A stretch of 64,000 nucleotides of DNA from an uncultured Methanosarcinales archaeon (GTDB taxonomy: Archaea > Nanobdellota > Nanobdellia > Woesearchaeales > ARS49). The notes under the pieces were generated by a model. It did not search any database, had not been told where the DNA came from, and saw nothing but the letters and a program-made list of their open reading frames with translations. Where the stretch lies: assembly GCA_964497645.1 (NCBI GenBank), contig CAZCCU010000002.1:3525-67524 (forward strand). Direction: 5' to 3'. This document shows, piece after piece, positions 12,995 through 56,786 of the stretch (positions within the stretch are counted from its first letter, which is position 1; the number at the start of each line of letters is the position of its first letter). Both the position numbers and the translations under genes were made by a program.

Positions 12995-12999
12995 TTCTT

Positions 13000-18448: not shown

Positions 18449-18486
18449 TTGGTATGTGTTTTACTCCTCTTCGGGGGTATCAAAAC

Positions 18487-25900: not shown

Positions 25901-25979
25901 GCGAATAGGCATAGTTATTGCAGTTGTTGTAATCGGCTTGATAGCGTACGCATTCTTCGTGCGCTGGGAATCATTTTAG
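19977..25979 (+). CDS. Giant (2000 aa) type-I membrane-anchored surface protein or adhesin
   Basis: The signal peptide reads MMKKLLLALLVLLAIPIVHAAADV. Repeated Ig/cadherin-like modules end in VNDAPV. A pentapeptide-like periodic segment follows, then a run of about 20 Gly, a Pro/Val linker PPVVPPPAVVPVVPVVEEEE, and a C-terminal TM helix IGIVIAVVVIGLIAYAFFV. Sequons are extremely frequent. Confidence 0.8.
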   Translation: MMKKLLLALLVLLAIPIVHAAADVTYNFNQNNVNASVYNCLDSACNQVGTFGGSIRDGPNVTDGTLTIRYPDTLNTHGYGAFFVSKGYRPLEIRATWHTNGNTGIASTSVNYEFTKYPITCRAVVSQLTFVNELQPNVPLVVNMSAKLDAQTASAFQLTNNEVGYVPPEFKQEYYGADTIVKMEVLQSGSVVHSQQQEFSAVKGNSLIADSTVPVQFTYLPTSTGNFAVKVTAQVVDDQCAATEDVNAQGAFTVLQALPTSQFYTILNGLTINNTHPRIGQPVLVSYNKITNHADGVLGPLTPVQTDVDYIVKNGATTIFSHTTTLFENPDAVNPVTYSFTFNPTSAGVYNITVKGRANSAIPTTNPEITDEESLLLTVIGSMSYKVAFNVRNADNGTPIENASVSLSGIGTNATNANGTISFSPVPEGMYTYTITAQGFGTKNDKVSVTTDKTISVSLHSGANESDANTAPFMNLPNQIEVETDSYARFNYHDYVQDDQDSDSSLVLSVVSGDDDITVNINQLTGVVTLTPEPSFSGSNTIRFRVTDTQNASETDSITVTVDATAVAPVWATVSDIETDEDTAAVRVLNLREFVSDADTPVANLVFSVVGVVPSTLATAQIDNGQYLTVYPKPDANDFGTINVTVSDGTTSVETSIDLDVTPVNDAPVVIAVPRIPNINESTNYTLNLSQVFRDVDGDPLYFNVTETMNVGFAISNSAQQMTILPEFNVTGTRTFNVTATDPSGLNATATFTLYLNFVDDSPFFTQVIPGILTFEETPNSRDLSPYEDDPEDGPGANGNTLTWKMQLANQSNVTPVTFISHPIFNASINTTTDFFLVLPKANQTGIVEMTLYLFDSTGKNVSQNITINITNVNDAPVFVNLSNQVVEAGTAFVYDVNATDSDPTNDTLAFSLNNVTPSLSGFSIDSATGMINYTPMVNGAFNVSLQVCDNFSACTNGTFALTVTDITAPVPDGQITPLNPSVYAPNASYTWGINWSDNGNITNVTFQLGNTNFTNVTQTGSFYQTTLLDLAAGNYTFAWFARDGANNVNMSNSSNFTILKANSTMDLLLNGTAGNITVPQTSNVTVMANITNTTGTVSIFRDGNLVGTGAAPLSINQSFPDQGTFNITSSFAGDQNYTGTSATHFVIVPDTTPPVFGTQTVSPASPAMFTSLYNFKVSVTDNVGVANVTLELDNATNSTASQIGNTSTWEANLTFISVGNHSFKWFANDSAGNQNSTAISNYTVTPGIAALTLTINGVAGNTNAQVSDSVTFVANVTNPAGGPVQLYINGTLASSGASPLTHVTSFASTGTMPILALFPGDANVATGNITRTLTITPIVTSANITPASGASLNYSTFLIALDTNGATTCKWSFTDVAQGSMTNSFTTANGLQHTANVTGYLLGPFSVSVACNGQSAITNTDLSYTAQNFLDGSTLNGLNNINNSIFTQGISNVSTVLNSNITTSESTNSALTNVTAINSEFIDSTLTNCVVTNSIVKDIIATGCTFTDSFVDPSNLTGSTIISSNTIDSNVTFSNVTDSTIVNANVNNSNVMDNSVIHVGINNVESSNLSNVHMHNSNVTNSALTDVFMDLTVVTNSVIDSADFIYNSTITDSTLVDVLTIRNSIITNSYVEDSSLFDVTVIDANITSGVIYSGVIISHLINLTYNATQDGPSNLTNFVNYAPFVLMTISPTSGIRVGTTVTFTANASDVNIGTLLNDSIVRYEFYLIDDNTPTITVNTSNTSVSVTHAYNATGTYFPFVLVYDSFGEVGGFGDTVNVSAAPSSGGGGGGGGGGGGGGGGGGGGSNIPRIALTDTPVTRIVYQGQPLQFSIEGKLQPLSVTLRRVVISGNGSTEWMSNGAQSTVMTGEHMLFDLTRDNIPELDLEVLSVSRGSTTISMKLASAPSVTTMPPLPVFNFTPVREQQPPVVPPPAVVPVVPVVEEEEVEVKAEVKQGFWQKLKDMFTIKLSAKSAAVRIGIVIAVVVIGLIAYAFFVRWESF
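25332..25391 (+). repeat. (GGN)20 triplet tract encoding a run of about 20 glycines inside the giant surface-protein gene
   Basis: The sequence is ggaggcggcggaggcggtggcggtggaggcggtggaggaggcggtggtggaggcggcgga. Confidence 0.9.
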
Positions 25980-41856: not shown

Positions 41857-42656
41857 ACGCCCACACTCGAGTACAACTTATACGCCCGCTTCCATACTAT
41901 GTAAATAAGTCCGTATAAAGCAGCAATCCAGAACAATTGAACTCCAAGCGCTCTCAACACTTCCGCATTCGAAATAGTGCCGAGATAAATCGTAATCGGC
42001 ACGAACCTCGTGCTTTCAAAAGGCAAATAATGGAGCGCAGACTGCGCCCATTCAGGAAACAAAGTCAGCGGGATAAAACTGCCACCAAGAAAACCAAGCA
42101 CAACCCTGCGAACTCTCCTCAAACCAGTAATCTTCTTCAGCCAGAACGCAGACAATCCCAAAAGGAAAGTCATGCCGTAATAAATGAAAAATGCCAAAAG
42201 CAAAGAGATAAGGAACGCGATGAAGTTAAAGGCAGGAGCGATACCAAGACCGAAGAACACAAAACCAATAATGAAAACAGGAATCATCTGCCAGATGATG
42301 TTCATAATGTTGATCCCAATCTCAAAAAACATGTACCACGATATAAAAGAGACAGGCCTCAACAAGCCCGAAATAGTACTGCCGTGAAGCAAATCCATCT
42401 CAACCCACTTATCGACCTCAGACCAGGTGAAAAAACCAACAATCATGCTCAGCACATAATAGTTAATCATCTGCTGAAGAGTAAAACCACGAATGACTTC
42501 CTGCCCGGTATAAGAGTAGACCGACGTCCACAGAAAATAATAGATGATTAGCGAGATGGGAACACTCAGCAAGCCCACAACAAATTCAAACCTATACGTA
42601 CTCCAAATCTTTATGCCCTTCTTTGCAATAGCCCAATGCGCATAAATACCGCTCAT
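41853..42656 (-). CDS. ABC-2 family transporter permease
   Basis: It has 6 TM helices. It overlaps the ATPase gene by 4 bp. Confidence 0.6.
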   Translation of the reverse strand: MSGIYAHWAIAKKGIKIWSTYRFEFVVGLLSVPISLIIYYFLWTSVYSYTGQEVIRGFTLQQMINYYVLSMIVGFFTWSEVDKWVEMDLLHGSTISGLLRPVSFISWYMFFEIGINIMNIIWQMIPVFIIGFVFFGLGIAPAFNFIAFLISLLLAFFIYYGMTFLLGLSAFWLKKITGLRRVRRVVLGFLGGSFIPLTLFPEWAQSALHYLPFESTRFVPITIYLGTISNAEVLRALGVQLFWIAALYGLIYIVWKRAYKLYSSVGV

Positions 42657-43636
42657 TCTCTGTAAATCTTCCTGATTATTTCCTCAATAGGAGGATCGGC
42701 AACAGTGATGTCAGCAACATCAAAATTCTTGAGCAGGTAGTTAATCAAGTCCTGGACTGGCGCTTTTTTCGTGTTAAGCTCTATCTTAATCTGGTAATCT
42801 TGCTTGTCAATAACCTTGCAGCCTTTGAACTTGAACGTGCGGATTTTATCACCGAACTTCACCTCGATATGCTTGTCAGTGAAGTACTTCTTTTTGATGT
42901 CCTCCAACGGGCCGTCGTAAATAATCCTGCCATGATTAATGATGATAATTCTCTTGCACAACTTCTCAATATCCTGCATGTCATGCGTGGTGATAATGAA
43001 CGTTGTTTTTTGCTCCCTGTTGATTTTTAAGATAAAATCTCTTAGTTTGTCTTTGGCAATGACATCCAAGCCAATGCTCGGCTCGTCAAGAAAAACAAGC
43101 CTAGGATAATGAAGCAAGGCATTAATCACTTCACAACGCATGCGCTCTCCTAATGAAAGCTCTCGCACTGGAGACTTCATGATTTCCTGCACTTCCAACA
43201 TCTTAACCATAAAGTTCAACCGCTTAGAAAAATCAGGCTCTGGAACATCATACAAGTCTTTATTTATGTAGAATGAGTCAATTGGAGGAAGGTCCCAAAT
43301 CATCTGAGACTTCTGACCAAACACTACTCCGATATTCGCCACGTACTTGATCCTATTCTCCCACGGAACCATTCCCAATACATTGGCTTCACCGCCATCA
43401 GGCCATAAAAGACCAGAAAGAATCTTGATCAAAGTAGACTTGCCAGCACCATTCGGACCAATAAGGCCAACAATCTCGCCTTCCTGCACTTCCAAGCTGA
43501 CTTTCTTCAAAGCGTCCTTTATAGTATACTCTCTGCTAAAAAGAGACTTAACAGCTTCAAGCACTCCCTGACCGCGCTTGTAAACCTTGAAAGTCTTGCG
43601 CAAGTCCTTAACACTAATAGCCGGCATACTCACCAC
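42653..43636 (-). CDS. ABC transporter ATP-binding protein
   Basis: GPNGAGKST is Walker A, the Q-loop is present, LSLGERMRCEV is the signature motif, LVFLDEPSIGLD is Walker B, and TTHDMQ carries the H-loop. Confidence 0.9.
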   Translation of the reverse strand: MVSMPAISVKDLRKTFKVYKRGQGVLEAVKSLFSREYTIKDALKKVSLEVQEGEIVGLIGPNGAGKSTLIKILSGLLWPDGGEANVLGMVPWENRIKYVANIGVVFGQKSQMIWDLPPIDSFYINKDLYDVPEPDFSKRLNFMVKMLEVQEIMKSPVRELSLGERMRCEVINALLHYPRLVFLDEPSIGLDVIAKDKLRDFILKINREQKTTFIITTHDMQDIEKLCKRIIIINHGRIIYDGPLEDIKKKYFTDKHIEVKFGDKIRTFKFKGCKVIDKQDYQIKIELNTKKAPVQDLINYLLKNFDVADITVADPPIEEIIRKIYRE

Positions 43637-43653
43637 TTTTTTCCTTCTGCCTA

Positions 43654-44634
43654 TTAAGAACTACTTAAAGGTTGTGGGCGCTTTTTAATACCGACGGCAA
43701 CATCACGCAAGTTAATCAATAATTCGTAAGCAAACCCGATCTTTGCAATCGAAGCAGAATCCAAACCATTGCCTTTGAACGACCGCTTCTCAATCTCATA
43801 AAACTTTTCGCGCAGCCTAATAATTTCCATGTAATCCTCCTCTTTTCCATGAATAAAGAACTGGCTGCACGCGTCAACCGCTTTCTTAATATCATTAAGA
43901 AGAATAAAAACATCATTGCTTACCTTCTTAGCGCCTGTCTTCGCCAAAATCATAGGAATCATGTAAATCTGGTCTCCCACCAATTCCAACTGCACCAATG
44001 CAGCGTACAACTCGTTCCCAACCTTAACGTCCTTATGCCCTTTCTTGTTCAAAATGCGCATGCAAAAATTGCAAAACTTGTTAACACCGCGGTCATACAG
44101 CCAAACATCCTTCAACTGGTCCGGCTTCATCGTTCGCAAAGCTTCCAGCGCCTGCTCAACCTGGTCCTGCAATCTGAAAAATATTTTTCTAAAAGCAGCA
44201 TCAAACTCCTCCTCAAGGCCCTCACTAAACTGCTTAATTATGAACAAGTTCGGAGAAGACTTCTCAATCTCCATGCCAAACAATTCTGTTGTGACAAGAT
44301 TCTCAATCTCCTCTTTCATGCTCACCTTGCGCTGAGTGCGTGAATGAACCAGCATCACATTTTCATACTCAACCTCGATTGTTTCAGCACCCATACGATA
44401 CGCTTCTGCAATATTACGGCGCAATTGAGTGATAGTGAGCCCGCGCGCGTCAATAAGCACAACTTTCTGAGAAACAGGGCCTTTCTTCGCGTTTAGAACA
44501 ATAGTGCTGCCATTCTCATCAACATCAAGCTCGTCCCCAGCCTTCAAGCCATACTGCTTAATCCATGATGCAGGAAGCGTGACGGTAAAAGAACCATGTT
44601 CTCTGTCCCCCTGCCGTATCAATTTACGCTTCAT
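43654..44634 (-). CDS. AbrB/SpoVT-like N-terminal domain fused to a PhoU-like helical domain (putative regulator)
   Basis: The N-terminus GSFTVTLPASWIKQYGLKAGDELDV is a swapped-hairpin AbrB-like domain. The rest is helical and resembles archaeal PhoU-domain proteins. Confidence 0.5.
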   Translation of the reverse strand: MKRKLIRQGDREHGSFTVTLPASWIKQYGLKAGDELDVDENGSTIVLNAKKGPVSQKVVLIDARGLTITQLRRNIAEAYRMGAETIEVEYENVMLVHSRTQRKVSMKEEIENLVTTELFGMEIEKSSPNLFIIKQFSEGLEEEFDAAFRKIFFRLQDQVEQALEALRTMKPDQLKDVWLYDRGVNKFCNFCMRILNKKGHKDVKVGNELYAALVQLELVGDQIYMIPMILAKTGAKKVSNDVFILLNDIKKAVDACSQFFIHGKEEDYMEIIRLREKFYEIEKRSFKGNGLDSASIAKIGFAYELLINLRDVAVGIKKRPQPLSSS

Positions 44635-44769
44635 ACAGTACGAAATAACTGTTCGAATATATAAATTTTTATATTAGTAATATAATTAATATCGGTTAGA
44701 TATAAATATGCAGCTTCTTATACCTTACTAACGGGTACGGGTGGTAGTTGAACATCCGCACTTGGTACA

Positions 44770-47700
44770 TTGGAGGTCGGTTTGACAAAAGCACGCATTC
44801 CATTGTTACCAATAAAAGGGGGACTTGGGGTTCTTACGCTATTTTTGATACTTCTAATAGCATGCACACAAGCAGACATAATAGCAAAGCCAACAAAACT
44901 CGCAGAACAGATACCTCCAGTACAGGAATTGAGCCAAGAGTCTGAACTGGAGAAAGCAACAGCAGTATCTCCTGTAACTGCGGCAATATCACTAGACGAG
45001 CCAAAACCCAAAATAGATCCAAAACTCGTCGAAGAGCTAAAAGAGCTCAAAAGGCAGAAAAAACACCAACGAGTCAGAGTACTTCTAGAAGCAACAGATG
45101 AAGAATCACTGGAAAGAGTAAGAGAAGCAGTCAAACGAGCAGGAGGAACAGTATATGAAAGCTTCAGCATAGGCGACATTGCAGTAGCAGAACTGCATTC
45201 AGACAAAATAGAGGAAGTCGTCCAAGCAGCAGGCGTGGAACAAATATCAGCAGAAAAAGAATATGTTGCTTTACTGCAAGACAGAATACCAGCGTTTTCT
45301 ATAGATACAGCATGGTCGAATAATATAACCGGAAAAAACGTCAAAATAGCGATACTCGACACAGGAATAGGACCTCACGACGACATTATCGTAGCAGCGG
45401 GACAATCATTCGTATCCGGAGAAGACACAGCAGACCAAAGCGGGCACGGAACACACGTAGCAGGAATAGCGCAAGGCATAGCCAAAGACGCGGTAATTTA
45501 CAATGCAAAAGTATTGAACAAGAACGGCGCTGGAACAACATCACAAATTCTCGCGGGAATAAACTGGGCAGTAGAACAGGACGTTGACATCATTTCTATG
45601 AGCTTTGGAGGAATGTTCACTGAATTAGACGGGCCACTTTCTTCTGCAGTCAAAGAAGCAATACAGAACGGAGTAATATTTGTTGTAGCGTCAGGAAACT
45701 GCAAACAAGGCTGCGGAGGATTTTATGGAGTTACAACACCAGGCAATGTAAAGGAAGTAATAACGGTTGGAGCGGTGGACGATAATAACGTTGTAGCTAG
45801 CTTCTCTTCAGGAGATACCTTTGATGGATACATCAAGCCGGATTTAGTAGCACCAGGAATAGACATCACCTCTGCCTGGCTGAACAACGGAGAAAAAACA
45901 GTCAGCGGAACCTCAATGAGCACGCCGTTCGTAGCAGGAGTAACCGCATTATTACTCGAGAAAGAGCCAGGATTGACGCACGAACAGGTAAAGCAGAGAC
46001 TGGAAAGCACGGCGACGGATCTGGGGGACGCGGGGAAGGATGAGAGGTACGGGGTAGGGCTAATAAGTGTGCCAAAATTAATTCAACCAGACCTAATTGT
46101 CAATCAGACCATTCAAAATTACACTGAAGTCTCCAGGACCAGAAACCTAAGCGAAATGCTCCCTTACGTGCTTACCAATTATACTGTATTGTATGAAGAA
46201 GGTAATCGCGGCAGCTATCAGTACACTACAATAGAGGGAGATAATGTTACTGTAAGCTTTTCTATCAGCAAACCAGAAAATTCAACAGAACTTGCCACAC
46301 AAATGCAATTGCCTTCTCAAGTTGAACCAAGCGACTCTGTGCCAGCCATTTTGGAATTCCTGGCAGGAGACAGGCCACCGCAAAGCACACCGCCTACATA
46401 TTTGACATTTGAAATAAGAGATACAGCTGGCGCTTTAGAAGGAATCCCACCGAGCTATACCATAACGCAATTCTTCAGAGACTTGCTTTATTCTGCAGAT
46501 CCAAGTGATATTGTCACGATTGGAATAATATTCACCGCGCCGAGCAGCTATGAAACATTCACAGCATATGCGTATATGTGGAACTTTCTTGTGGCTGATC
46601 CTGTCATGATTGATATCGATTCAGGAGGAAAAAGCTTTGACGTGGTATCAAATGCTAATCCATTTGATGAATGCGACAGAGATAGCGAATGTCCAGACGA
46701 CAGGTGGCGCGGCGGAACATACTGCCAAGATGGAGACATATATCAAGATTACAGAGACTGGTATTGCCTTGGAGCGTCAACAAGATATTCAAGCTGTGAA
46801 GTTGATACCTATCCCCGAAAGAAAGAGGAATGCGGAAGCAACGAATGCTGGAATGATCAATGTATTCCTCCATGCCAAGATGCAGACAAAGATGGCATCG
46901 GCTTGGCTTTCCCCTGCCCGATATTCGGTGACTGCGACGACAATGATGCAACTGTTTATGGCGGAGCTCCAGAACTGTGCGATGGCAAAGATAATGATTG
47001 TGATGCGTCAATTGACGAGGGCCTAGCAGACCTACCAGAGCTCTGCGACAATAACTTAGACGACAATTGTGACGGCCACATCAATGAAAACTGTCCATGC
47101 GGGAAAAACAGTGACTGCTTTCCTGGAATGGCGTGCGAGTTTGAATGGTACTCGGGAACCTGCCAGCCACTATCATGCACAAACAGATGCACGCCAGGAA
47201 CTTACACGTGTTCTTCAGGCTCGATATATGAATGCAAGGACAGCAACGGAGACGGCTGTACAGAACAGGTTTACAGAACATTCTGCGGATCAGGCAGATG
47301 CCAAAACGGACAATCAAATTGCCTGACAACATCATCTGTTGTTGTAAGAATAGAGGAATCAGAGGGCTCCATATACGTTCAACCAGGAGATGCAATCACT
47401 GTAAGCTTATATCCATCAGGAACTCAGACAGTCCAGCTCGAATATTCCTCAATATTCAGTCTGAACACGAGCACTTGTTCAAATAGCGCGTTCTCAATCA
47501 GCTCAAAAAAAGAGTGCAGATTCCAAGTAAGCCCGACAGCAGCGCGCGGAAGATATCATATTGGGGTAAACAGTGGAGACCGCAAATATATACTCGTGCG
47601 CACCAATCCAAACATGCTTATTCTGACAAACAAGGACAAACTGCGCGAGCTATACAAGGACACCAGCGGTGTAAACTCACTTCTTAGACAGACATATGCT

Positions 47701-49809
47701 TACGCAAACGAACACGTGGCAGTTGTATACGACCTGATGGACTACATTTCCAACCATCCATGGGCGTCCTTCGATGAGTATAAGGAAACATACACCGATC
47801 AGGAGCATGAAGACAACACATACGCGCTTGAGGCATCAGAATTCGTACAGGACAAGTGCAATGGTTGCTCGGACACGCTCGTATTAGGAGACGATTTTGT
47901 AGTACCACATTACAGACGCAAAATAGACATAAGCACGTGGTTCGGACTTTCAGAAACCACCCAAGAACTTTATTCCGATATAGCATACGTAAAAAGGACA
48001 ACCAAGGACTTCGCAGAATTTGAAGAATTGTTCTACCAATCTGACAATTTCGATGGAAAAAATGTGCTGATAATACTGCCGGACAATGTTGACAGCGCAA
48101 AAAGGGAGCAAATTAACAAGCTCAAAAATTTCCTCGAGAATCACCCAGAAATCCAAGCAGATGTGAGCCAGCGTGATGGAAATGATGCAGAGTGCAACTC
48201 GCATCTTGCGTTCTCATACTATGACGGGCACACCGTGATAGTCATAGGCTCTGAAGAAACAAACAAAGCACTGCAGTGCTTCCCATTTGTAATTGAAAAC
48301 ACCCTTGAAACATTAACAATCGAGCGAAACCCATGGGACGGTAGAGGGTATGCGGTTGTAGTGAACAGCGACAACACGGATGTTTTGACGCTTTTTAATG
48401 ATATATTAGAAAAAGAGACTTACAAAAATCTGACCTCCTCAGGCTGGCTCGTGGCCAGAACAGCCGCAAATGTAGGAGCTGGAGTGGCGATAGGCTCTGT
48501 AGTCATTGCATCAGGAGGAACGGCTTCAATTGCTTTGCTTGCAGTAGGCACTGGCGCAAGCATTGCAACAGATGCTATCGATGGCGCGGAGTGTCTGAAA
48601 TTTGCCGGAGGGCAATGCACAGAATTCGCAGTAGGATTGCTTCTTCCATTCGGAGTGGACAAAATAGGAAAACCATTCTTGAAAGGCGCAATCGACATTT
48701 TCGGCCCAAAACTCAGGTATGCGTACACTGCGCTTGGGGAGAACATAATCGGCTTTCTCAAAAAAATGGGGAAGAGAGGACACTTGAAGTTCGGCAGCGG
48801 CTATCATTCAGTTCTAAAACTAATTAATGATCGCGTGGACGACCCCATTTCAGGCCCTCTTGTTGAATACTTGGCTAAATCTGGAGACGAGTTCACCACT
48901 TTCATCTCAAAGACTGGGGAAACAAACCCAACCCGCGCCTTGAGCATCCTAAAGACAGCGCACACTATGAAATTGGATTCTGCACAACTCAAAATCATAG
49001 CTGAACAAAGAGGCATTTCACAAAAAACGCTATTGAAGTATGTTGACGGACTTGATGATGTCATCAAACTTGCGTATCACGAACAAACTCATTATGCGTC
49101 AGGCCAACTGAGGCCGCTGATGAGAGGAATTTCTGATATAACAGGCACTACAGACGAAATATTGAACGCGGTTGAGGGAGGGTTTGCCAAAACCGGCGCA
49201 AAAACCGGCGGTTTTGATTTTGCGAGGCACATCGGCTCGGGCGGAGACACTGAGCAAGCTGTAACAAGCTTCGCGCATGATTTGGGAGTTGCATATCATT
49301 TCGCAGCAGAGAAAGGTAAAGGAGCCGGCATTATTCTGGTGTATGATCCGAGAATGGCAACCATGGTGGATTCTCAGGCATCACTCAAAGCACTCGATGG
49401 AGCCGTGCCAGGCGCAGAAGTCAAGATGTATAAGTCAACAACGTCAAAGACGGTGGAGGAAGTATACACGGATGCATTGGGCAACAATGAAGCAAATCTA
49501 CTCGGAAGGCCAAATATTGAGCACGTGGTTGGCTGGTATGAAGTCTGGAAAAATTCAGATGGGGCATTTGCAAAGAAGTTTGTTCCAAATCCAAAATATG
49601 TAGGAATTCAAAGCGAATGGGATCACATCAAGAGCATTGATAGTGTTAAGCAGTTGTATTTGGACAACGGAATCAGCAATTATAACACTCTAGTGGAGCG
49701 TACGAAAGAACTTGCCCGCAGACATGGAAATGAACTGGATCCTGCGGACCTCCCCATCTTTAATGAAATGAACGGCAATACTGATTTATGGCCTAGAGAG
49801 GTGGGCTAA
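44770..49809 (+). CDS. Giant (1679 aa) subtilisin-like serine protease (S8) fused to MopE-like Cys repeats, a TM segment and a C-terminal HExxH domain
   Basis: It starts at a TTG with a signal/lipobox-like LILLIACTQ. The S8 triad is DTGIGPHDD, HGTHVAG and GTSMSTPFVAG. Cys repeats of the CDGKDNDCDASIDEG type follow. A Gly/Ala-rich TM segment WLVARTAANVGAGVAIGSVVIASGGTASIALLAVG comes next, then a 450-aa domain containing AYHEQTHY. Confidence 0.85.
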   Translation: MEVGLTKARIPLLPIKGGLGVLTLFLILLIACTQADIIAKPTKLAEQIPPVQELSQESELEKATAVSPVTAAISLDEPKPKIDPKLVEELKELKRQKKHQRVRVLLEATDEESLERVREAVKRAGGTVYESFSIGDIAVAELHSDKIEEVVQAAGVEQISAEKEYVALLQDRIPAFSIDTAWSNNITGKNVKIAILDTGIGPHDDIIVAAGQSFVSGEDTADQSGHGTHVAGIAQGIAKDAVIYNAKVLNKNGAGTTSQILAGINWAVEQDVDIISMSFGGMFTELDGPLSSAVKEAIQNGVIFVVASGNCKQGCGGFYGVTTPGNVKEVITVGAVDDNNVVASFSSGDTFDGYIKPDLVAPGIDITSAWLNNGEKTVSGTSMSTPFVAGVTALLLEKEPGLTHEQVKQRLESTATDLGDAGKDERYGVGLISVPKLIQPDLIVNQTIQNYTEVSRTRNLSEMLPYVLTNYTVLYEEGNRGSYQYTTIEGDNVTVSFSISKPENSTELATQMQLPSQVEPSDSVPAILEFLAGDRPPQSTPPTYLTFEIRDTAGALEGIPPSYTITQFFRDLLYSADPSDIVTIGIIFTAPSSYETFTAYAYMWNFLVADPVMIDIDSGGKSFDVVSNANPFDECDRDSECPDDRWRGGTYCQDGDIYQDYRDWYCLGASTRYSSCEVDTYPRKKEECGSNECWNDQCIPPCQDADKDGIGLAFPCPIFGDCDDNDATVYGGAPELCDGKDNDCDASIDEGLADLPELCDNNLDDNCDGHINENCPCGKNSDCFPGMACEFEWYSGTCQPLSCTNRCTPGTYTCSSGSIYECKDSNGDGCTEQVYRTFCGSGRCQNGQSNCLTTSSVVVRIEESEGSIYVQPGDAITVSLYPSGTQTVQLEYSSIFSLNTSTCSNSAFSISSKKECRFQVSPTAARGRYHIGVNSGDRKYILVRTNPNMLILTNKDKLRELYKDTSGVNSLLRQTYAYANEHVAVVYDLMDYISNHPWASFDEYKETYTDQEHEDNTYALEASEFVQDKCNGCSDTLVLGDDFVVPHYRRKIDISTWFGLSETTQELYSDIAYVKRTTKDFAEFEELFYQSDNFDGKNVLIILPDNVDSAKREQINKLKNFLENHPEIQADVSQRDGNDAECNSHLAFSYYDGHTVIVIGSEETNKALQCFPFVIENTLETLTIERNPWDGRGYAVVVNSDNTDVLTLFNDILEKETYKNLTSSGWLVARTAANVGAGVAIGSVVIASGGTASIALLAVGTGASIATDAIDGAECLKFAGGQCTEFAVGLLLPFGVDKIGKPFLKGAIDIFGPKLRYAYTALGENIIGFLKKMGKRGHLKFGSGYHSVLKLINDRVDDPISGPLVEYLAKSGDEFTTFISKTGETNPTRALSILKTAHTMKLDSAQLKIIAEQRGISQKTLLKYVDGLDDVIKLAYHEQTHYASGQLRPLMRGISDITGTTDEILNAVEGGFAKTGAKTGGFDFARHIGSGGDTEQAVTSFAHDLGVAYHFAAEKGKGAGIILVYDPRMATMVDSQASLKALDGAVPGAEVKMYKSTTSKTVEEVYTDALGNNEANLLGRPNIEHVVGWYEVWKNSDGAFAKKFVPNPKYVGIQSEWDHIKSIDSVKQLYLDNGISNYNTLVERTKELARRHGNELDPADLPIFNEMNGNTDLWPREVG

Positions 49810-50721
49810 ATGGAGATACATCTTGGTTCATTAAATGCAGGTGCTCCGAGACCAAAAGTCAATCAGACAGACGAACTAAAGCGAGCTCCAAGCGAAATAC
49901 TCTCGTGGCCACAGTCACATGGGTATATCAAAGGTCCAATAGAATTCAACATTCTCTGTGATCTAGTCCTAAAGGACATGCGTGCTGGCAGCTATCAGGA
50001 ACTTCTTCATAGATGCATAAAGGAAGGTCACTTGCCTTCTGAAGAGAAACCAACCTATATTCTGCTAACTAACGGGACATTCAAATTTACTACTTCTGCC
50101 ACAAGATTTTCAATTTCTATCATAGATTATACCCAGTACGAAGCTGCCTGCGAGGGAATTTTCGATATTCTAAAAGTCCTTACTGAACATGATTTGATCA
50201 GCAAGTTCCAGATTAGTCCTACCTATTTCCCGATCTACGATCATGGAAAACTCATATACTATGTAATACGCCATATTATTCCGCATTATGATACATACAG
50301 TGCATTTGACAAGAATTTCGACAAGTTTGAAAATTGTTTCAAACATCGCGCCAAGAACGGCCAGCTTATTTTCATGTTCAGATACGAAGATCCAATAAAA
50401 CTTTCAAACATTCCAAAAAAATACCTCGACACCATCGATCTCAAAATTGAAAATGTCCCATACCCAGAGCCAGTATATATTGCACAATTCAGGCAGGACA
50501 AACTTTACAAATACTTAGTACACGTTGGCGAAATGGGTGATCATCTAGGAAGGCACTGGCAACGTGATACAAAAATCATTCTGACTGTTGACAATGTTGA
50601 AGACGTTGCCAGCGCAATTGAGCACAAACTCGCCTTGTTCGGATTCAAAATTGAGAACTTTGAACAATTCAAACAAAAAATACATGAAGCTGGAAAAAAG
50701 GTGCTTATCAGTGAAGCATAA
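49810..50721 (+). CDS. Hypothetical cytoplasmic protein immediately abutting the giant protease gene
   Basis: Its ATG directly follows the TAA at 49807-49809. It is 303 aa with no signal peptide or TM helix. No motif was recognised. Confidence 0.55.
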   Translation: MEIHLGSLNAGAPRPKVNQTDELKRAPSEILSWPQSHGYIKGPIEFNILCDLVLKDMRAGSYQELLHRCIKEGHLPSEEKPTYILLTNGTFKFTTSATRFSISIIDYTQYEAACEGIFDILKVLTEHDLISKFQISPTYFPIYDHGKLIYYVIRHIIPHYDTYSAFDKNFDKFENCFKHRAKNGQLIFMFRYEDPIKLSNIPKKYLDTIDLKIENVPYPEPVYIAQFRQDKLYKYLVHVGEMGDHLGRHWQRDTKIILTVDNVEDVASAIEHKLALFGFKIENFEQFKQKIHEAGKKVLISEA

Positions 50722-53700
50722 GCCTGTTACCTGGATTTTCGCATTCATTCTTGTAATCACTATAGCGGCAGCTGTGCCCGTGAACCACGAAACCACATCT
50801 GTCTCAAGAATAGTTGCTGACAGTCCCGGACAAATGCGCAGGCAACTGTTTACAAGCGGGTTTACACTGCAAGATGCAGAACTGTTCACACAGCGCACAT
50901 TTGAAACAAGATATGATGTCAATAGTATCATGACTAGCCAGTTCCAATCAATGAGTTCAATGCCGCAATTCAGCGGATGGAGATTTGCAGACGTGGAAGA
51001 CCAACTCTCCAACGGGCAAAACAATTACTTAGTGCTTAATTCAAGAACGTCCAGCACACCATATAGCACAAGCCAAGGAACAATTGATGATATCAATGAT
51101 TGGGAATTAACTGAAAAAAATCTGTTCGTATTTGATTCGAAATACGCAGGACTGCACATGCCTGCAAGAACATCCTTCACCAGCAAACTCAGCGCCAAAG
51201 CACCATATATCGCGCCATTATCCTATCCGAGCGCACAATTCGTAAAATCACTCGTATGCAATCTCGGAAAACATCCACGCTTGGGAGAAGCGTTCAGGCA
51301 AGCACGCAATAACTACTACATTAACACCAATCTGCGCTCGGAATTTCTAGGACTCACGCTGCTATCATACGCGTTATATGGCTCGCCAAGAACAAACGTT
51401 CTAATCCCAACCTGGAACACCCAAGCACGACAAAGACTGTGCGGTGAATACGATAACACATACGGAACACAGGCAGCAGATATCCTTGAGATACAACAAC
51501 ACCAACTTGTGAAACAGGTCACAGCAAACATGGGAGAGCCAACGACCGCAGCATACGATGAATTCACCATAATAGAAACACCCAACACGCAGTCAAAATT
51601 CGCAGAAGACGAACTCATAACACCCTTCAAGACAGAAATCACAAAATTCCCACTAAATACGTTAATCACAAACGTCACTTTCATCGGATTTGAGGATCCT
51701 GTTGAGCTAACAGTGGACGATACGCCAATGTGGAACGGAGACTCAATGCAGGAAAAAACATGCTACACAGAAACGGACAGCCCAACAGCAGAATTCTCAT
51801 ATGCAGTTTCAGAAGAAGAACTCGTGGTTGTAGCGCACATAAATCCAGTGGAAGTCATAAGCTGCAGCCAAGGCAGATTCAAAATTTACAAAACAGCCAG
51901 ATATCAAATCGAGTACACTCCAAACTCACCTATCCTGATAGAAGAGGTGATCCATCCTGCAACAATGACTCCAAACCAAACCACCAACATCCAAGTAGAG
52001 ATAGAGAATATACAGTCAGAACCTGTAACTGGCATACTTGCACTTGTAGGAGAAGAGGGCGTAATATCAACAGTGGAAGTAACCAGCACACAAACATCAT
52101 ACTACCTGGAACTCATAGCTCCTGAAGAAGGACTGCACAATTACAGAATAGAATTCGTCCAGGAAAACGAATCAAAAACATTTTCTGAATTTGAGATAAA
52201 TGTAGCGGTTTTAGAAGCACAGCTGATAATACCCGAAATTGTAGGCCAAAGCGCAACTGTCACACTGGAAATAACAAATATGCTGTCAGAGACAATCAAT
52301 GCCACGATCAATGACATTCTAACCCACGATGAACAAACAATAACGAGCAATGACCAGGAAATGCAACTTCCTCCTGGAACAACCACCATTAATTTGGAAT
52401 ATGACAATCTTGAAAAAGAGGCTATCAGCTATGACTTATTGGTAAATATCGCTTACCTGGAAACAAACAAACTACTATGGGGCACAATAATAACAAACCA
52501 CGCACCAACAATACTCCAAGGAAATGTAGTCCTGAAAGAAGGCGACACGGTACAAATAACTCCAGAAGTAACTGACCTGGACGAAGATGATGTAAGCATG
52601 ACAATCGATTCGCCACTCCCGCTTGATGGAAGCTATACTCTGGCGTATGAAGACTCTGGCGTGTACATAATATCAATAGAAGCATCAGACGGAATAATCA
52701 CAATTGAAAAAACAATCTCTCTAACGGTGGAAAACGTCAACAGGCCGCCAACACTGACAGTGCCAGAAACAATCACGGTCAGCGAAGGCCAAGAAGCATC
52801 GATTGGCGCTTCTGCGAGCGATCCTGACAACCAAAACAGCGTAAACAATGACGACAATGCGTTAACAATCACGTATAGTGCGCCATTTGACTCAAATGGA
52901 AAGTACACGCCAAGCTATGACGCATCAGGAGAATTCACAACACTGGTCAGCGTAAGCGACGGGGAATTCACTGACACAAAAATTGTGACAGTCACAGTCC
53001 TAAACGTCAACAGGCCACCGCACCTGAATGATTTGACTGATATCACAATCAATGAAGGAGAAACAGTCTACGCACAAGTTGGAAGAGATCCAGACAACGA
53101 GAACATAGATCCAAGCGATGACAACAACATCACACACCGCTACTTCAACGTTCCACTCGACCACGAAGGCAAATGGAAAACCAACCACGAGAACAGCGGC
53201 AATTATACTGTTGGCGTGGAAGTTTCTGATGGAACGCTTGGAGTGAGAAAAAATGTCAGGCTAACAATATTGAACGTCAACAGGCCGCCAGTAATCTCCG
53301 CGCCGGAAGTAATCTACGCGAATGGCTCTGCTGACCTGTCAGTCTATATTTCAGACCCTGACAATATGAACTCTGTCACAAACGATGACAACGTGCTTAC
53401 CATAAATTACGGAGGCAGCCCATTCGACGCAAACGGAGTATGGTCGCCAACAATACCAGACAGCACAGCATACACTACAATCACCGTATCAGACGGCGAA
53501 TTCACAGTCAGCAAATATGTGGCAGTCCACGTAGCACAAGTAAATGTTCCACCAGCGCAAACACCGCCAGCACCACAAACACTGCCATCTGAATCAACAC
53601 AGCCAACTGAAACAATCACGCCTGTGACAACCACGCCTCCTGTGGAAACAATTCCGCCGGCGCCAGCGCCACAACCAACAACCGAGCCTGAAGGAACAGC

Positions 53701-54772
53701 TGAACCAAATCCAGAAACAACTCCAACAGAAGAAACAACAACAGAAGAGAATATCACAGCTTCGCCAGCGCCAGTGGTAGTAATTGTACCACCAGCCACA
53801 GACTCAACTTCAACAGCACCAGCAGTGCAACCAGCGCCAGCTCCTGCACTGACTGAAACACCAGCAGTACCAGCACCCGCACTGACAGAAACCCAGCCGA
53901 CACAACAAACAGCAACACAAAATACGGCGGCAGCACAAATTGACGAACTCAGCATTCAAGTGAAAGTCGGCAGCAAAAAAGTAGAAGACGGAGACTCAGT
54001 CAAAGTAAAACCAGACAAAGAACTCAAAATAGAAATAGACATAAAGAACAATGCCGCGGAAGAAAAAGAAATAGAAATAGAAGCGAGCATAGACGACCTA
54101 GACCAAGACGAAGAAGACAGCGTAACACTAGATCCAAACGAACAAGAAGAGTTCAAATACACATTTGACATTCCAAGACTCACAGAAGACGACGAATACG
54201 ACCTGGACATATTCGTACGAGATTCAAAACAAACCAGAGAATGGAATATTCTACTAAAAATAGACAAACCATCACACGAAGTAAACATCAAACAGTTCAG
54301 CATAACACCTGAAATCGTTCAATGCGAGCAGACAAGCGCAGAATTACAGCTCAAGTTAGAAAACACAGGCAAAAACGACGAAGAAGGCACCATACTCTTT
54401 GAAAGCGCCACGCTTGACATTTTGGAGACCATGCCATTTGATCTGGCCGAAGGAGAATCAAAACTGTACAAGAAAACAATCAGCGCGCTAAAAACAGGAA
54501 CACACGACATCAAAGCAAAAGCAGACTATGGCAAAACAGAAGAGCAAACCAAGACGCTCACTGTTCAGCCATGCATCGCAGAAGAAGCAACCGTCACGCA
54601 CGCAGAGCCTGAAACTCCACGAGTAGGCATCAGCAGCGGACAACAAATGGCAAAAACAGTAACAAACGCGGACACAATGCCAGCGAAAGACATAGCCAGC
54701 ATAGCATTTGTGATACTATCAGGATTATTCGCGGTCACGCTGATCATTTTCGCGATGCGATTTAGAAACTAG
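50684..54772 (+). CDS. Giant (about 1360 aa) type-I surface protein with cadherin-like VNRPP repeats
   Basis: The signal peptide is KHKPVTWIFAFILVITIAAAVPVNHE. The start could be the ATG at 50684 or the GTG at 50711, and both overlap the upstream gene. Repeats ending VENVNRPPTL, VLNVNRPPHL and ILNVNRPPVI follow. A Pro/Thr linker contains a tandem PAVPAPALTET pair. A CARDB-like acidic domain comes next, then the C-terminal TM helix IASIAFVILSGLFAVTLIIFA and RFRN. Confidence 0.75.
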   Translation: MKLEKRCLSVKHKPVTWIFAFILVITIAAAVPVNHETTSVSRIVADSPGQMRRQLFTSGFTLQDAELFTQRTFETRYDVNSIMTSQFQSMSSMPQFSGWRFADVEDQLSNGQNNYLVLNSRTSSTPYSTSQGTIDDINDWELTEKNLFVFDSKYAGLHMPARTSFTSKLSAKAPYIAPLSYPSAQFVKSLVCNLGKHPRLGEAFRQARNNYYINTNLRSEFLGLTLLSYALYGSPRTNVLIPTWNTQARQRLCGEYDNTYGTQAADILEIQQHQLVKQVTANMGEPTTAAYDEFTIIETPNTQSKFAEDELITPFKTEITKFPLNTLITNVTFIGFEDPVELTVDDTPMWNGDSMQEKTCYTETDSPTAEFSYAVSEEELVVVAHINPVEVISCSQGRFKIYKTARYQIEYTPNSPILIEEVIHPATMTPNQTTNIQVEIENIQSEPVTGILALVGEEGVISTVEVTSTQTSYYLELIAPEEGLHNYRIEFVQENESKTFSEFEINVAVLEAQLIIPEIVGQSATVTLEITNMLSETINATINDILTHDEQTITSNDQEMQLPPGTTTINLEYDNLEKEAISYDLLVNIAYLETNKLLWGTIITNHAPTILQGNVVLKEGDTVQITPEVTDLDEDDVSMTIDSPLPLDGSYTLAYEDSGVYIISIEASDGIITIEKTISLTVENVNRPPTLTVPETITVSEGQEASIGASASDPDNQNSVNNDDNALTITYSAPFDSNGKYTPSYDASGEFTTLVSVSDGEFTDTKIVTVTVLNVNRPPHLNDLTDITINEGETVYAQVGRDPDNENIDPSDDNNITHRYFNVPLDHEGKWKTNHENSGNYTVGVEVSDGTLGVRKNVRLTILNVNRPPVISAPEVIYANGSADLSVYISDPDNMNSVTNDDNVLTINYGGSPFDANGVWSPTIPDSTAYTTITVSDGEFTVSKYVAVHVAQVNVPPAQTPPAPQTLPSESTQPTETITPVTTTPPVETIPPAPAPQPTTEPEGTAEPNPETTPTEETTTEENITASPAPVVVIVPPATDSTSTAPAVQPAPAPALTETPAVPAPALTETQPTQQTATQNTAAAQIDELSIQVKVGSKKVEDGDSVKVKPDKELKIEIDIKNNAAEEKEIEIEASIDDLDQDEEDSVTLDPNEQEEFKYTFDIPRLTEDDEYDLDIFVRDSKQTREWNILLKIDKPSHEVNIKQFSITPEIVQCEQTSAELQLKLENTGKNDEEGTILFESATLDILETMPFDLAEGESKLYKKTISALKTGTHDIKAKADYGKTEEQTKTLTVQPCIAEEATVTHAEPETPRVGISSGQQMAKTVTNADTMPAKDIASIAFVILSGLFAVTLIIFAMRFRN
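53826..53894 (+). repeat. Tandem duplicated about-33-bp unit encoding PAVPAPALTET x2 in the Pro/Thr linker
   Basis: ccagcgccagctcctgcactgactgaaaca is followed by ccagcagtaccagcacccgcactgacagaaacc. Confidence 0.6.
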
Positions 54773-55656
54773 CCGTGAGCACTCAATAAATGCAGACCTT
54801 TCGCAGCATTCTGCAGATCATTCTTTCTGATAATCTTCTGAGACCACCTTTCTGGAATATTCTTAAAACCATAATGCGCTCCAGCTATCGCTCCAGCAAT
54901 CGCACCAGTAGTATCAGCGTCCCCACCAAGATTCACAACAGCAACAAGCGTGTCCTCAAACGAATTTCGAGAAAAAACCGCATAAAACACTGCTTTGAGC
55001 GTGTCAATAATATAACCAGAAGGCCTGTGCACTGGAGACTTTTGATAAAGACAAGATGTCAGTCTGCCGTCGATAGGAAGCCGTGCCGCGATCTCCAGTG
55101 CCTCTGTCAACGAACTGCCAGCCAACAATTTGGCTATGATTTCATTCACAAGCACGCACGCGGATATGCACAGAGGATTAGCATGAGTTATAGAAGAATC
55201 CTCCCTGCTGTAATGCGCCCTTTTTTCAGAATTGTTCCAATAGGCGATTCCAATAGGAGCGCAACGCATTGCGCTGCCATTAGCAGCTGCTGGTGCAGGT
55301 ACACCTGAAGAAACAGGACTAACACCTTTCTTAATAGCAGTAAGCGCTGTTCTGGTAGTCACTCCCATGTCAACAGGACCGCTCTCCAGCCATTCAACAT
55401 ACTTCTTAGCAGCGCCAAAAAGATCATAACCACCGCACTCAATAATTGAGTTGGCAAGACAAAGAGCCATGTCAGTATCATCGCTAACCTCGCCAGCATC
55501 CACAGACAACCAGCCACCGCCTATGATCTCCTTATGGACTTTATGCTGGCGCCAAATTTCATCAGGACTCATGCGCTCAACAGTCAAGCCTAGAGCATCA
55601 CCTACAGCCAACCCGAACATACAGCCTAACATCTTATCAAAATCAATGCCGCCCAT
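54769..55656 (-). CDS. ADP-ribosylglycohydrolase (DraG/ARH family)
   Basis: GLAVGDALG, SDDTDMAL, GSAMR and the C-terminal NLGGDADTTGAIAGAIAGAHYG are all family hallmarks. Confidence 0.9.
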   Translation of the reverse strand: MGGIDFDKMLGCMFGLAVGDALGLTVERMSPDEIWRQHKVHKEIIGGGWLSVDAGEVSDDTDMALCLANSIIECGGYDLFGAAKKYVEWLESGPVDMGVTTRTALTAIKKGVSPVSSGVPAPAAANGSAMRCAPIGIAYWNNSEKRAHYSREDSSITHANPLCISACVLVNEIIAKLLAGSSLTEALEIAARLPIDGRLTSCLYQKSPVHRPSGYIIDTLKAVFYAVFSRNSFEDTLVAVVNLGGDADTTGAIAGAIAGAHYGFKNIPERWSQKIIRKNDLQNAAKGLHLLSAHG

Positions 55657-55720
55657 TAGCTCTCCAGAATGTCATAATAAATACAGGTATGTGGAGTATA
55701 AAAGATTTGCGCAACCGCGC

Positions 55721-55963
55721 TTAATCGTGCGTGTCCAGATTAAACACGGCACCAGAATCCTTCAAAGCATTCGCAACATTGTCGCCTAACGCCAGAACTT
55801 CAGATTTTGACGGGTTTTTGCCCTTCCAGTCAAACACAAAATCAAACGGGCCAAACTCAGTAGTGAAGCCAAGAGATTCCAAGCGTTTAGAAGTTTCTGA
55901 TGCTGAAACTCCTTTTGTCCCAAAATACATCACCAAATATGTTTTAAAACCCATATCAATCAC
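55721..55963 (-). CDS. Small hypothetical protein upstream of the glycohydrolase
   Basis: It is an 80-aa ORF with protein-like composition, 65 bp upstream on the same strand as the ADP-ribosylglycohydrolase gene. It conflicts with the 5' part of track ORF 55731-56786, which looks spurious. Confidence 0.35.
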   Translation of the reverse strand: MIDMGFKTYLVMYFGTKGVSASETSKRLESLGFTTEFGPFDFVFDWKGKNPSKSEVLALGDNVANALKDSGAVFNLDTHD

Positions 55964-56156
55964 AACCGCGGCTTTCTTATATAAAATTATCTGTCAAGAA
56001 CACTTGGGTGTTCTTGAGCATGCGTCAGAAATCCACATAAATAATCATAAATTGTGCGGATTTCTGATCGCACTCGGAAAGCTGTGCTTTCCGATGCTCG
56101 GAAACCAAGGTTTCCAACATGTAAGGTTTTTAAAGAAACGCGGGCTTCCATGCGTT

Positions 56157-56786
56157 ATGAAAAAAGAGCTGCTGATGATACTATTCATCCTTGGACTGCC
56201 AACAGTTTTCATAATGAGCTTAGGACCACAATCAACAGGAGCGCTAGTCAATGGCATTGCACAGGTACGCGTTGACCAAATAAATCTCGCTATGAACTTT
56301 CCAATAGTGCTAGAACTGCCATACAAAGTAATAACTTACAGGGTAAGACAACATCTGAGAAACATGGCAAACGAAGGCTACTATTATCCAGACGGGCTCG
56401 GAAATGGAGATGGATATTACCTGGAAATGCTCAACCTGTTTCCAGACTTGCTGAGGCTGGCATGCCTGCGCCCGTACGAAGACCACTACATCAGCGCGAG
56501 CGGAAGAGCAATACTAATCCCGTGGAACAGATGGGCTGATGGAGAGTTCACAGACATCGGACAAATACCTTGTAATCCAGAACTAGCGCAAAAATCAGAA
56601 GAAACACTAGATGGACTTGTGGAATTGAACAACAAACTTCTGGAAATAACGATGCAAAACAGCAAATGCCCGGAGCTTGCTGCAGACAGCATGACATTAG
56701 CGCAAGAAAATGTTGAGAAAGGCAATTACGAAGCGGCAATCACCAACTGGAGAAGCGCCTGGAGCAAGGCAAAGAGCTGCGCATGA
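56157..56786 (+). CDS. Secreted hypothetical protein
   Basis: The track ORF is trimmed to the internal ATG that precedes a clear signal peptide, MKKELLMILFILGLPTVFIMSLGPQS. Confidence 0.5.
   Translation: MKKELLMILFILGLPTVFIMSLGPQSTGALVNGIAQVRVDQINLAMNFPIVLELPYKVITYRVRQHLRNMANEGYYYPDGLGNGDGYYLEMLNLFPDLLRLACLRPYEDHYISASGRAILIPWNRWADGEFTDIGQIPCNPELAQKSEETLDGLVELNNKLLEITMQNSKCPELAADSMTLAQENVEKGNYEAAITNWRSAWSKAKSCA

Follow-up and report, generated by a model that had tools for sequence, protein, structure and literature searches.

A giant surface protein with a variable C-terminal tail and an abutting partner gene: a predicted toxin-immunity cassette in Woesearchaeota-type DPANN archaea

The giant1 locus

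The window analysed here, a stretch of 64,000 nucleotides (nt) from one archaeal contig (CAZCCU010000002.1, GenBank assembly GCA_964497645.1), contains a gene for a giant protein, giant1, and immediately behind it an open reading frame (ORF) for a protein of 303 amino acids (aa); these two genes are the subject of this report. An earlier note on the same DNA had compared the pair with polymorphic toxin and immunity genes. Both ORFs that it described are present in the ORF list, and the smaller one does start on the base after the stop codon of the larger: the junction reads GGC TAA ATG, with a gap of 0 nt between the stop codon and the ATG at 49810, and a Shine-Dalgarno-like GAGGTG element lies just 5' of this ATG. 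The features of the locus are collected in Table 1.

Table 1. Features of the giant1 locus, with nucleotide positions in the window.
Feature	Positions	Strand	Residues	Basis
giant1, predicted polymorphic toxin gene	44770..49809	+	1679 aa from TTG at 44770	ORF list and translation
N-terminal signal sequence, lipobox-like LIAC	44770..44874	+	1-35	Hydropathy peak at residues 10-40
S8 subtilisin catalytic domain	45331..46059	+	188-430	Pfam PF00082, full-length, E 9e-56, 189.8 bits
Cys-rich region, 29 Cys	46672..47322	+	C635 to C851	Pfam PF11617 and Cys positions
Stalk domain (DDFVVPHYRR, FAEFEELFYQ, NPWDG)	47617..48444	+	950-1225	Family-wide signature, alignment A2
Gly/Ala-rich hydrophobic segment	48445..48585	+	1226-1272	Hydropathy, Kyte-Doolittle up to 1.9
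Pre-toxin linker (C1275/C1283, hydrophobic LLLPFG)	48586..48780	+	1273-1337	Ends in KKMGKRG
Junction motif KKMGKRG	48760-48780	+		
Variable tail, type A, predicted toxin	48781..49806	+	1338-1679	HMMER homologues, alignment A3, profile comparison
Helical adaptor of the tail			1338-1429	
Predicted ADP-ribosyltransferase (ART)-like core of the tail	49057-49671	+	1430-1634	
Predicted cognate immunity gene, new family a, cytoplasmic product	49810..50721	+	303 aa	Abuts toxin stop; covaries with tail
giant2, partner surface protein	50684..54772	+	1362 aa	N-terminal signal/anchor, Pro/Thr-rich linker, C-terminal transmembrane segment
ADP-ribosylglycohydrolase gene	54769..55656	-		Pfam PF03747, E 4e-78; directly after giant2

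The length of 1679 aa given in the note holds for giant1 as read from the first TTG. Gene callers give either 1675 or 1679 aa, and the true start is likely the TTG at 44782, 12 nt downstream, because a Shine-Dalgarno-like GGAGGT occupies positions 44772-44777 just before it and because the 1675 aa of the gene callers correspond to it. Hydropathy and sequence reading revealed an N-terminal hydrophobic segment together with LIAC, as expected of an exported protein, and the same combination in homologues, which carry L[VI][AS]C at the position of LIAC. Giant1 may be processed as a lipoprotein at this site.

The secreted S8 protease claimed for the N-terminal part was recovered with all of its motifs intact (ILDTGI 195-200, HGTHVAG 226-232 and GTSMSTP 380-386). 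The catalytic residues are D197, H226 and S382, with the oxyanion residue N310 within ASGN, and an I9-like propeptide region probably precedes the domain at about residues 80-175. Its closest solved relatives are true subtilisins, among them BPN' and Carlsberg (E 8e-48). Of the family members with a complete N-terminus, only about half possess an S8 domain. The Cys-rich repeats of the CDGKDNDCD type were likewise found where expected: the region contains two MopE-type repeats, CDGKDNDCD at 737-745 and CDNNLDDNCD at 759-768, and the Pfam model Cu-binding_MopE matches residues 721-750 (E 3e-10), or two stretches when the segment is scanned alone.

The stalk domain that follows gave no match in a Pfam scan or in a profile search of the PDB, and an AlphaFold2 (AF2) model of it (predicted local distance difference test, pLDDT, 58) gave weak flavodoxin-like matches only. 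The Gly/Ala-rich segment, placed near residue 1230 in the note, is readily seen by hydropathy and consists of two halves of ~20 aa around a conserved SGGT turn. This segment and the N-terminal signal are the only two hydrophobic stretches of giant1, and the former is a putative membrane hairpin or translocation element. Most family members share, after the stalk, a Gly/Ala hydrophobic stretch of ~45 aa with a GGT turn, a Cys pair and a short hydrophobic/Pro motif; some loci have a less hydrophobic linker with four Cys in place of the Gly/Ala stretch. The Cys pair of the linker is kept in nearly all loci, and the basic residues of the junction motif are 1335-1336. Elements of the RHS/YD, filamentous-haemagglutinin, MafB-N, PAAR, LXG or HINT types were not detected in giant1, nor did Pfam report a LamG or ResIII domain. 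Outside S8 and MopE the scaffold is made up of no known domains.

The 303-aa product contains no hydrophobic segment (maximum KD19 0.83), in agreement with the earlier statement that it has no signal peptide. The protein has no Pfam or NCBIfam match, and a profile of its family gave no match in the PDB. The next gene, giant2, overlaps the 303-aa gene by 38 nt and encodes a protein with three Ig-like repeats of 90 aa, as seen by hydropathy and repeat analysis. A profile search of the PDB gave no meaningful match for giant2.

A conserved scaffold with a replaceable tail and partner gene

In the following, W denotes the locus in the window, L with a three-digit number a related locus, and P with a four-digit number a protein matched in the tail search. 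Type A is the tail type of the window's giant1, and family a comprises the homologues of the window's 303-aa protein. Three alignments were used: A2 of the stalk (49-64% identity), A3 of eight type-A tails, and A4 of seven sibling ART tails that are not of type A. A scan of A2 against species-representative genomes gave 17 loci and a scan against the JGI metagenomes gave 14, thus 31 in all, whereas the metagenome scan gave no match with the tail alignment as query. Several metagenomes hold contigs identical to that of the window, and these therefore carry no information on variability. Almost all hosts of the 31 stalk loci are Candidatus Woesearchaeota, Nanoarchaeia or other DPANN metagenome-assembled genomes. 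The records of five loci (L013, L017, L024, L026 and L029) bear the name 'uncultured Methanosarcinales archaeon'; both the content of these loci and their nearest neighbours are of the Woesearchaeota/Nanoarchaeia type of DPANN, and the labels are probably taxonomic mis-assignments.

About 30 DPANN loci share the stalk and the linker, and beyond the linker their tails fall into at least 12 unrelated clusters. Pfam assigned the tails of L015 and L018 to the Scabin-like family above the gathering score, with NarE matched as well, and the tail of L017 to Enterotoxin_a, also above the gathering score. The tail of L016 gave a weak SprT-like match with an HExxH motif, and HExxH was also found by reading the tail sequences of L020, L027 and L035. 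Motifs resembling PD-(D/E)xK were read in the tails of L019, L021, L022, L025, L037, L040 and L042. The order of genes is almost everywhere the same: one or several small ORFs (130-360 aa) are packed closely behind giant1, giant2 comes next, and the small ORFs switch along with the tail type. Giant2 itself is syntenic 3' of the small ORF or ORFs in at least 16 loci, with 26-78% identity.

The boundaries of the exchanged part are clearest in the comparison of W with its closest relative, L013. In a blastn alignment the two are 78% identical from 42000 to 48782, and then nothing aligns up to 50771 save one patch of 160 nt, after which the identity is back at 79%. The break at 48782 falls directly after KKMGKRG, and what has diverged comprises precisely the tail and the 303-aa gene. 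Between the proteins the identity is 79% for the stalk and 79% for the linker, 46% for the tail and 27% for the 303-aa protein, and it rises again to 78% for giant2 and 87-90% for the genes further downstream. Strict synteny of tail and downstream ORF with no variability, the outcome that would speak against a polymorphic system, was looked for, and the opposite was found. Other pairs of loci show that stalk and tail have been shuffled in both directions: L015 and L031 are 92% identical in the stalk and 29% in the tail, L015 and L018 42% in the stalk and 51% in the tail, and W and L014 65% in the stalk and 21% in the tail. The small ORF of L014 differs from that of the window, as does its tail.

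The association between type-A tails and family a is tight. A family-a gene stands directly behind six of six type-A tails on the giant1 scaffold (W, L013, L007, L009, L030 and L044) and behind none of the 23 other tails, and it was met once more as a second, 'orphan' ORF behind a type-B toxin in L008; over all locus pairs, which are not phylogenetically independent, Fisher's test gives p 7e-10. Scabin-type and nuclease-like tails are each followed by a distinct partner family of their own.

Several loci also contain orphan toxin-end fragments, each followed by an immunity homologue (L019 d2/d3 and d4/d5, L022.d2 and L042), some of them with linker homology. These lie in arrays of small ORFs behind the main toxin, at 5094-9343 in L019 (= L033/L034), from 4388 to the end in L022, and at 4407-8276 in L042. 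The L019 fragments d2 and d4 are homologous to the tails of L021 and L022 (E 3e-49), with the immunity homologues d3 and d5 behind them. L022.d2 repeats the linker of its own locus at 89% identity, and this repeat is likely a recombination handle. Arrays of small ORFs were also found in L016 and L031, and orphan partner ORFs in L008 (L008.d2) and L031 (L031.d4). The window contains no orphan toxin-end or immunity cassettes.

From these comparisons it is clear that the N-terminal five-sixths of giant1, with signal, S8 domain, Cys-rich region, stalk, hydrophobic segment and Cys-pair linker, form a conserved scaffold, and that a toxin/partner cassette is replaceable after KKMGKRG, with operon-like packing of the genes. 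The layout proposed in the earlier note, that of a polymorphic toxin with its immunity gene, is borne out by relatives in which other C-terminal domains stand before other downstream ORFs. We consider it probable that residues 1338-1679 of giant1 and the 303-aa ORF constitute the toxin-immunity cassette of a polymorphic toxin system conserved in Woesearchaeota-type DPANN archaea.

A different role for the 303-aa protein, as a chaperone or export adaptor specific for the toxin, has to be weighed. Covariation of its gene with the tail and the translational coupling of the two would agree with this role; moreover, the protein is larger than most immunity proteins and matches no known immunity family. 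On the other hand, partner genes that occur without their toxin (L008.d2, L031.d4) and the arrays in L016, L019, L031 and L042 follow the pattern of immunity genes, and a cytoplasmic chaperone for the C-terminus of giant1 is not required, since the toxin has an N-terminal Sec signal. We therefore find the chaperone role quite unlikely. As an immunity protein, the 303-aa cytoplasmic product would neutralise the tail in the producer and its kin, a role for which its position and covariation with the tail provide good support.

The tail, its partner and the neighbouring genes

The type-A tail consists of a helical adaptor and a core (Table 1). An exhaustive HMMER scan of 1.84 billion representative proteins, with residues 1275-1679 of giant1 as query, gave nine matches including the protein itself, and five of these carry a type-A tail. 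P0004 and P0006 are giants with the architecture of giant1, P0005 and P0008 are fragments, and P0007 bears the tail on a different N-terminal scaffold. Two more giants, P0009 and P0010, match only the first 66-84 residues of the query and then continue into a different C-terminus, and P0011 is a weak match of doubtful relevance (E 7e-4 over a stretch of 47 residues).

The earlier note had read the tail as a domain with an HExxH motif, and the motif does exist: AYHEQTHY is found at residues 1436-1442, with HExxH itself at 1437-1441. Such a motif is expected by chance only ~0.01 times per 400 aa (our own estimate, from typical residue frequencies), and HExxH tails do occur in four other members of the family, so that a zinc metalloprotease would be a natural suggestion. 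However, H1437, E1438 and H1441 are kept in none of the seven homologous type-A tails, where the columns read LEGKLT, VDDTIY, PYTKQF and the like. The HExxH tails of L016, L020, L027 and L035 are not homologous to that of the window, and no metallopeptidase family of Pfam matched the type-A tails, even at E values up to 10. We have therefore ruled out the motif as the mark of a metalloprotease, and such an identity of the window's tail is now very improbable. What does stand out is that the tail aligns with those of ART toxins.

This relation runs through the sibling tails. A profile of A4 matches ART toxins in the PDB, namely TreX (1e-8), ArtA, pierisin-1, Scabin, the A subunit of heat-labile enterotoxin (LT-A) and CARDS. 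When A3 was compared with A4 by hhalign, the two were related with 97.1% probability (E 7e-11, 117 columns), and controls with reversed, column-shuffled or unrelated profiles reached at most 0.6%. A hidden Markov model (HMM) of A4 also matches the window protein directly, at 34-36 bits. In both MAFFT and HMM alignments L-M-R1452-G of the window's tail corresponds to the Arg motif of ARTs, T1499-S1500 to S-T-S, and N1572-N-E1574 to E-x-E, with E1574 aligned to the second Glu of that motif. S1500, N1572 and E1574 are invariant in the eight type-A tails, and R1452 is found in seven of the eight. The window's tail is thus most likely, as judged from these alignments, a very divergent ADP-ribosyltransferase of the R-S-E type (cholera-toxin/pierisin/Scabin-like) with an unusual N-x-E motif, and R1452, S1500 and E1574 are the candidates for its catalytic residues.

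Several observations count against an ART. Scanned singly, none of the type-A tails has a Pfam match, including to any ART model, and a profile of the type-A core gave no meaningful match in the PDB; the link of the window's tail to known ARTs is thus transitive, by way of the sibling tails. The first residue of the last motif is an invariant Asn and not Gln or Glu (N-x-E versus [QE]-x-E), and in one homologue Lys replaces the Arg at R1452. AF2 run on the tail with six sequences gave a pLDDT of 45, and the ART fold is for this reason unconfirmed by structure prediction. The same observations, together with ~90 aa of extra helical sequence and a C-terminal extension of 45 aa with a conserved W-P-x-E-V, would fit a polymorphic toxin system in which the type-A tail is not an active ART but either inactivated or a different enzyme whose scaffold is remotely ART-like. 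Yet S1500, N1572, E1574, G1588/W1589 and N1607-P-x-Y are strongly conserved across tails that are only 32-50% identical, a covarying immunity gene has been retained, and the profile link to bona fide ARTs comes with clean controls. A tail that is not an active ART is hence rather unlikely in our view.

When the window's 303-aa protein and partner proteins of the different ART-type tails (L015.d1, L018.d1, L031.d4, L017.d1, L031.d1 and L008.d1) were compared by profile, a weak similarity emerged that is limited to the last 40-130 residues: profile A6 scored 6-17% with the ART-tail partners and immC 84% with L017.d1 (E 8e-6), as compared with 0.1-0.2% for the partners of nuclease or HExxH tails. 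This hints that the ART-tail partners may belong to one immunity superfamily, very divergent and diversifying in step with the ART tails. The pairing is not seen everywhere. Type-A tails also occur on a scaffold lacking S8, in L010 at 10001-14032 (P0007) and in L045 at 36-962 (P0008), beside genes for an M17 peptidase and a DUF2203 protein, and the available flanks of these two tails contain no family-a homologue, a point against the toxin-immunity reading.

Effector and immunity pairs built on an ART are exemplified by Tre1-Tri1, where Tri1, like DraG, belongs to the ADP-ribosylglycohydrolases. The 303-aa partner of giant1 differs from these in being unrelated to known ART immunity proteins. 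A gene of the Tri1/DraG class does lie 4 kb downstream, outside the conserved locus, and it might possibly provide extra protection against ADP-ribosylation beside the predicted ART locus. Its link to the toxin system is circumstantial: the stretch 54760-56156 has no counterpart in L013 and the ADP-ribosylglycohydrolase gene is absent from all other loci, which makes it an insertion specific to this genome. The idea that it serves as a conserved second immunity gene was accordingly rejected as a general feature. Next to it, a 351-aa ORF at 55731-56786 (+ strand) matches its relatives only from residue 143 onwards (90% identity to L013), so that the real start of this gene is probably near 56157, with 142 codons over-extended into the insertion.

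On the other side of the locus, a divergently oriented gene for a 326-aa protein at 43654-44634 (- strand) encodes an AbrB/MazE-type DNA-binding domain and a CwfJ_C_1-like domain. In L013 and L018 this gene keeps its place immediately upstream of giant1 (62-64%), in L008 its conservation is weaker, and it may be a regulator of the locus. Another large surface-protein operon of the window is found at 18454-25979, where a second giant protein of 2000 aa (19977-25979, + strand) with Big_9, cadherin-like and CarboxypepD_reg domains is preceded head to tail by a 508-aa ORF (18454-19980). The surroundings of the giant1 locus are otherwise ordinary chromosome, with genes for PolB, an Lhr helicase, Hsp70 and an ABC-2 transporter.

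Relation to known systems and possible mode of action

A literature search returned no paper describing this protein family, the overlap with the archaeal survey of Makarova et al. 2019 being left aside. Polymorphic toxins that are exported by Sec and carried on a stalk, such as those of the Rhs/WapA, MafB and CdiA types, were described by Zhang et al. 2012 (PMC3482391), who also counted subtilisin among the proteases that process such toxins from within the same protein, and who found archaeal systems to be rare and limited to some methanogens and haloarchaea. The DPANN locus resembles those systems in its signal peptide, its long conserved N-terminal scaffold and sharp junction motif, its hypervariable C-terminal toxins (ART, nuclease and metallopeptidase), its predicted cognate immunity gene immediately 3' and its orphan cassettes. 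Judged by comparative genomics, it is thus a locus of the kind defined there (PMC3482391). It differs from them in that the stalk, the Gly/Ala hairpin and the Cys-pair linker have no Pfam or PDB match, in having giant2 as a fixed partner gene, in its DPANN hosts, and in the new families of type-A toxin and family-a immunity protein.

Among the ART toxins of the R-S-E type (Scabin, pierisin-1, NarE, heat-labile enterotoxin A, ArtA and TreX), which the sibling tails match directly, the window's tail would be an outlier. Its alignment with the sibling tails covers the S-T-S and ExE regions, and Arg, Ser and Glu are kept; the tail differs from the known toxins in its N-x-E, in its additional N- and C-terminal segments and in having no direct match to an ART model.

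Diphtheria toxin and Pseudomonas exotoxin A are A-B toxins with a hydrophobic translocation hairpin that are activated by the subtilisin-like protease furin, and exotoxin A carries its ART domain at the C-terminus. By analogy only, giant1 may be set beside them: each would combine a part for binding with a hydrophobic helical hairpin, a loop closed by a disulfide, a basic site for processing and an ART domain. The resemblance has limits, as the Cys loop (1275-1283) and the basic motif (1335-1336) of giant1 lie ~50 residues apart, and its protease would act in cis and is a true subtilisin, not of the furin/kexin type.

A linkage between an S8 subtilase and a Sec-secreted polymorphic toxin is known from the BetaH toxins of Firmicutes (PMC9424270; PMC13556192), and in S. 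aureus the toxin becomes active when the S8 peptidase cuts the carrier domain extracellularly (PMC13556192). Giant1 shares with the BetaH system the S8 linkage, the Sec secretion and the adjacent immunity gene. In Firmicutes, however, the S8 protease is a separate secreted protein and the BetaH carrier is small, whereas the S8 domain of giant1 is in cis in a protein of ~1700 aa and is absent from half of the family. By analogy, the cis S8 domain may process giant1 as the separate S8 does in Firmicutes.

A tentative course of events can be outlined. Giant1 would leave the cytoplasm through Sec and be presented at the cell surface alongside giant2, encoded in the same operon. The tail would then reside outside the cell, as suggested by a ~45-aa stretch that looks like a hairpin with a central turn, is dispensable in some members and is followed by a Cys pair; the hydrophobic hairpin and the Cys loop might tether the tail, aid its passage across a target membrane, or both. 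The tail could be freed close to the junction, perhaps through the action of the cis S8 domain, and could then pass into a neighbouring archaeal cell, either a competitor or a host. Three points speak against parts of this scheme. Release by a cis S8 domain cannot be general, since about half of the complete family members lack S8; the S8 domain of giant1 is related to true subtilisins and not to kexin-type dibasic proteases; and if the Gly/Ala stretch were a single span, the tail would be cytoplasmic, as has been proposed for the SPEARE proteins of Nanohaloarchaeota. A dibasic cut at KR|G made by the cis S8 domain in the manner of kexin was considered separately, and the same two properties of the S8 domain weaken this idea.

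The SPEARE proteins are a close published parallel in DPANN archaea. They combine a serine protease with laminin-G/adhesion domains and end in a conserved domain of the type III restriction-enzyme kind; their C-terminus was reported to be the most conserved part and cytoplasmic, and neither an immunity gene nor cassette polymorphism was described for them (Hamm et al. 2019, PMC6642349). Compared by way of this published description, giant1 follows the same plan: a very large surface protein of a DPANN archaeon has a serine protease in its N-terminal part, domains of the adhesion type, a hydrophobic segment towards the C-terminus and, at the end, a predicted enzyme domain. The C-terminal domain of SPEARE is restriction-endonuclease-like, and several tails of the giant1 family are PD-(D/E)xK-like; in the giant1 family, however, the C-terminus is the variable part.

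Giant1 could accordingly be imagined as a resident surface protein of the SPEARE kind, with a single membrane span, protease and adhesion parts outside, and a tail enzyme in the producer's own cytoplasm that acts on imported material or in signalling, the small ORF being its regulator or inhibitor and nothing being delivered. The layout shared with SPEARE (PMC6642349), the lack of a signal peptide in the small ORF and the nuclease-like tails of several members would agree with such a protein. The conserved central GGT turn, in contrast, suggests that the ~45-aa hydrophobic stretch is a hairpin and not one span, many members have non-hydrophobic four-Cys linkers in its place, and the conserved Cys pair behind it points to a position outside the cytoplasm. 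In SPEARE proteins conservation is highest at the C-terminus, while here the tail is the least conserved part; the family tails match the secreted toxins Scabin, NarE and LT-A; and the orphan toxin/immunity cassettes would be left without a role. We regard a resident protein of this kind as unlikely. The related suggestion of the earlier note, in which the C-terminal domain would serve a membrane-spanning sensor as its signalling module inside the cell, found no support, given tails of classic secreted-toxin type, covarying partner genes and orphan cassettes.

Returning to the polymorphic toxin system, a more far-reaching and speculative version of it can be put forward by analogy. Giant1 and giant2 might form a contact-dependent delivery apparatus that is specific to DPANN and unrelated to the secretion-linked systems of bacteria, in which the hairpin, the Cys loop and the basic junction, as a self-contained module for translocation and release comparable to the T-domains of diphtheria toxin and exotoxin A, would inject a swappable ART, nuclease or protease cargo into archaeal neighbours, serving episymbiotic Woesearchaeota in kin discrimination or in the manipulation or killing of hosts; SPEARE-type giants would then be the same weapon. 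We hold this to be possible, albeit doubtful.

DPANN archaea live attached to other cells, and their means of competing with these cells or acting on them are largely obscure. A Woesearchaeota-type lineage would, according to the reading preferred here, keep at one fixed chromosomal site a giant surface protein with an enzymatic tip that is swapped, along with its matching immunity gene, as one cassette, and at least 12 unrelated kinds of tip are found in these giants, although archaeal polymorphic toxins have been considered rare (PMC3482391). The locus would define a new, divergent family of ART-like toxins and a new family of immunity proteins, and its scaffold of stalk, hairpin and Cys loop points to a mode of delivery for which no known secretion system accounts. 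SPEARE-like proteins may be read anew in its light, and a concrete, testable function is proposed for the giant 'hypothetical' surface proteins, which occupy a considerable part of these small DPANN genomes; repertoires of toxins and immunity genes could mark strain-level conflict in uncultivated archaea.

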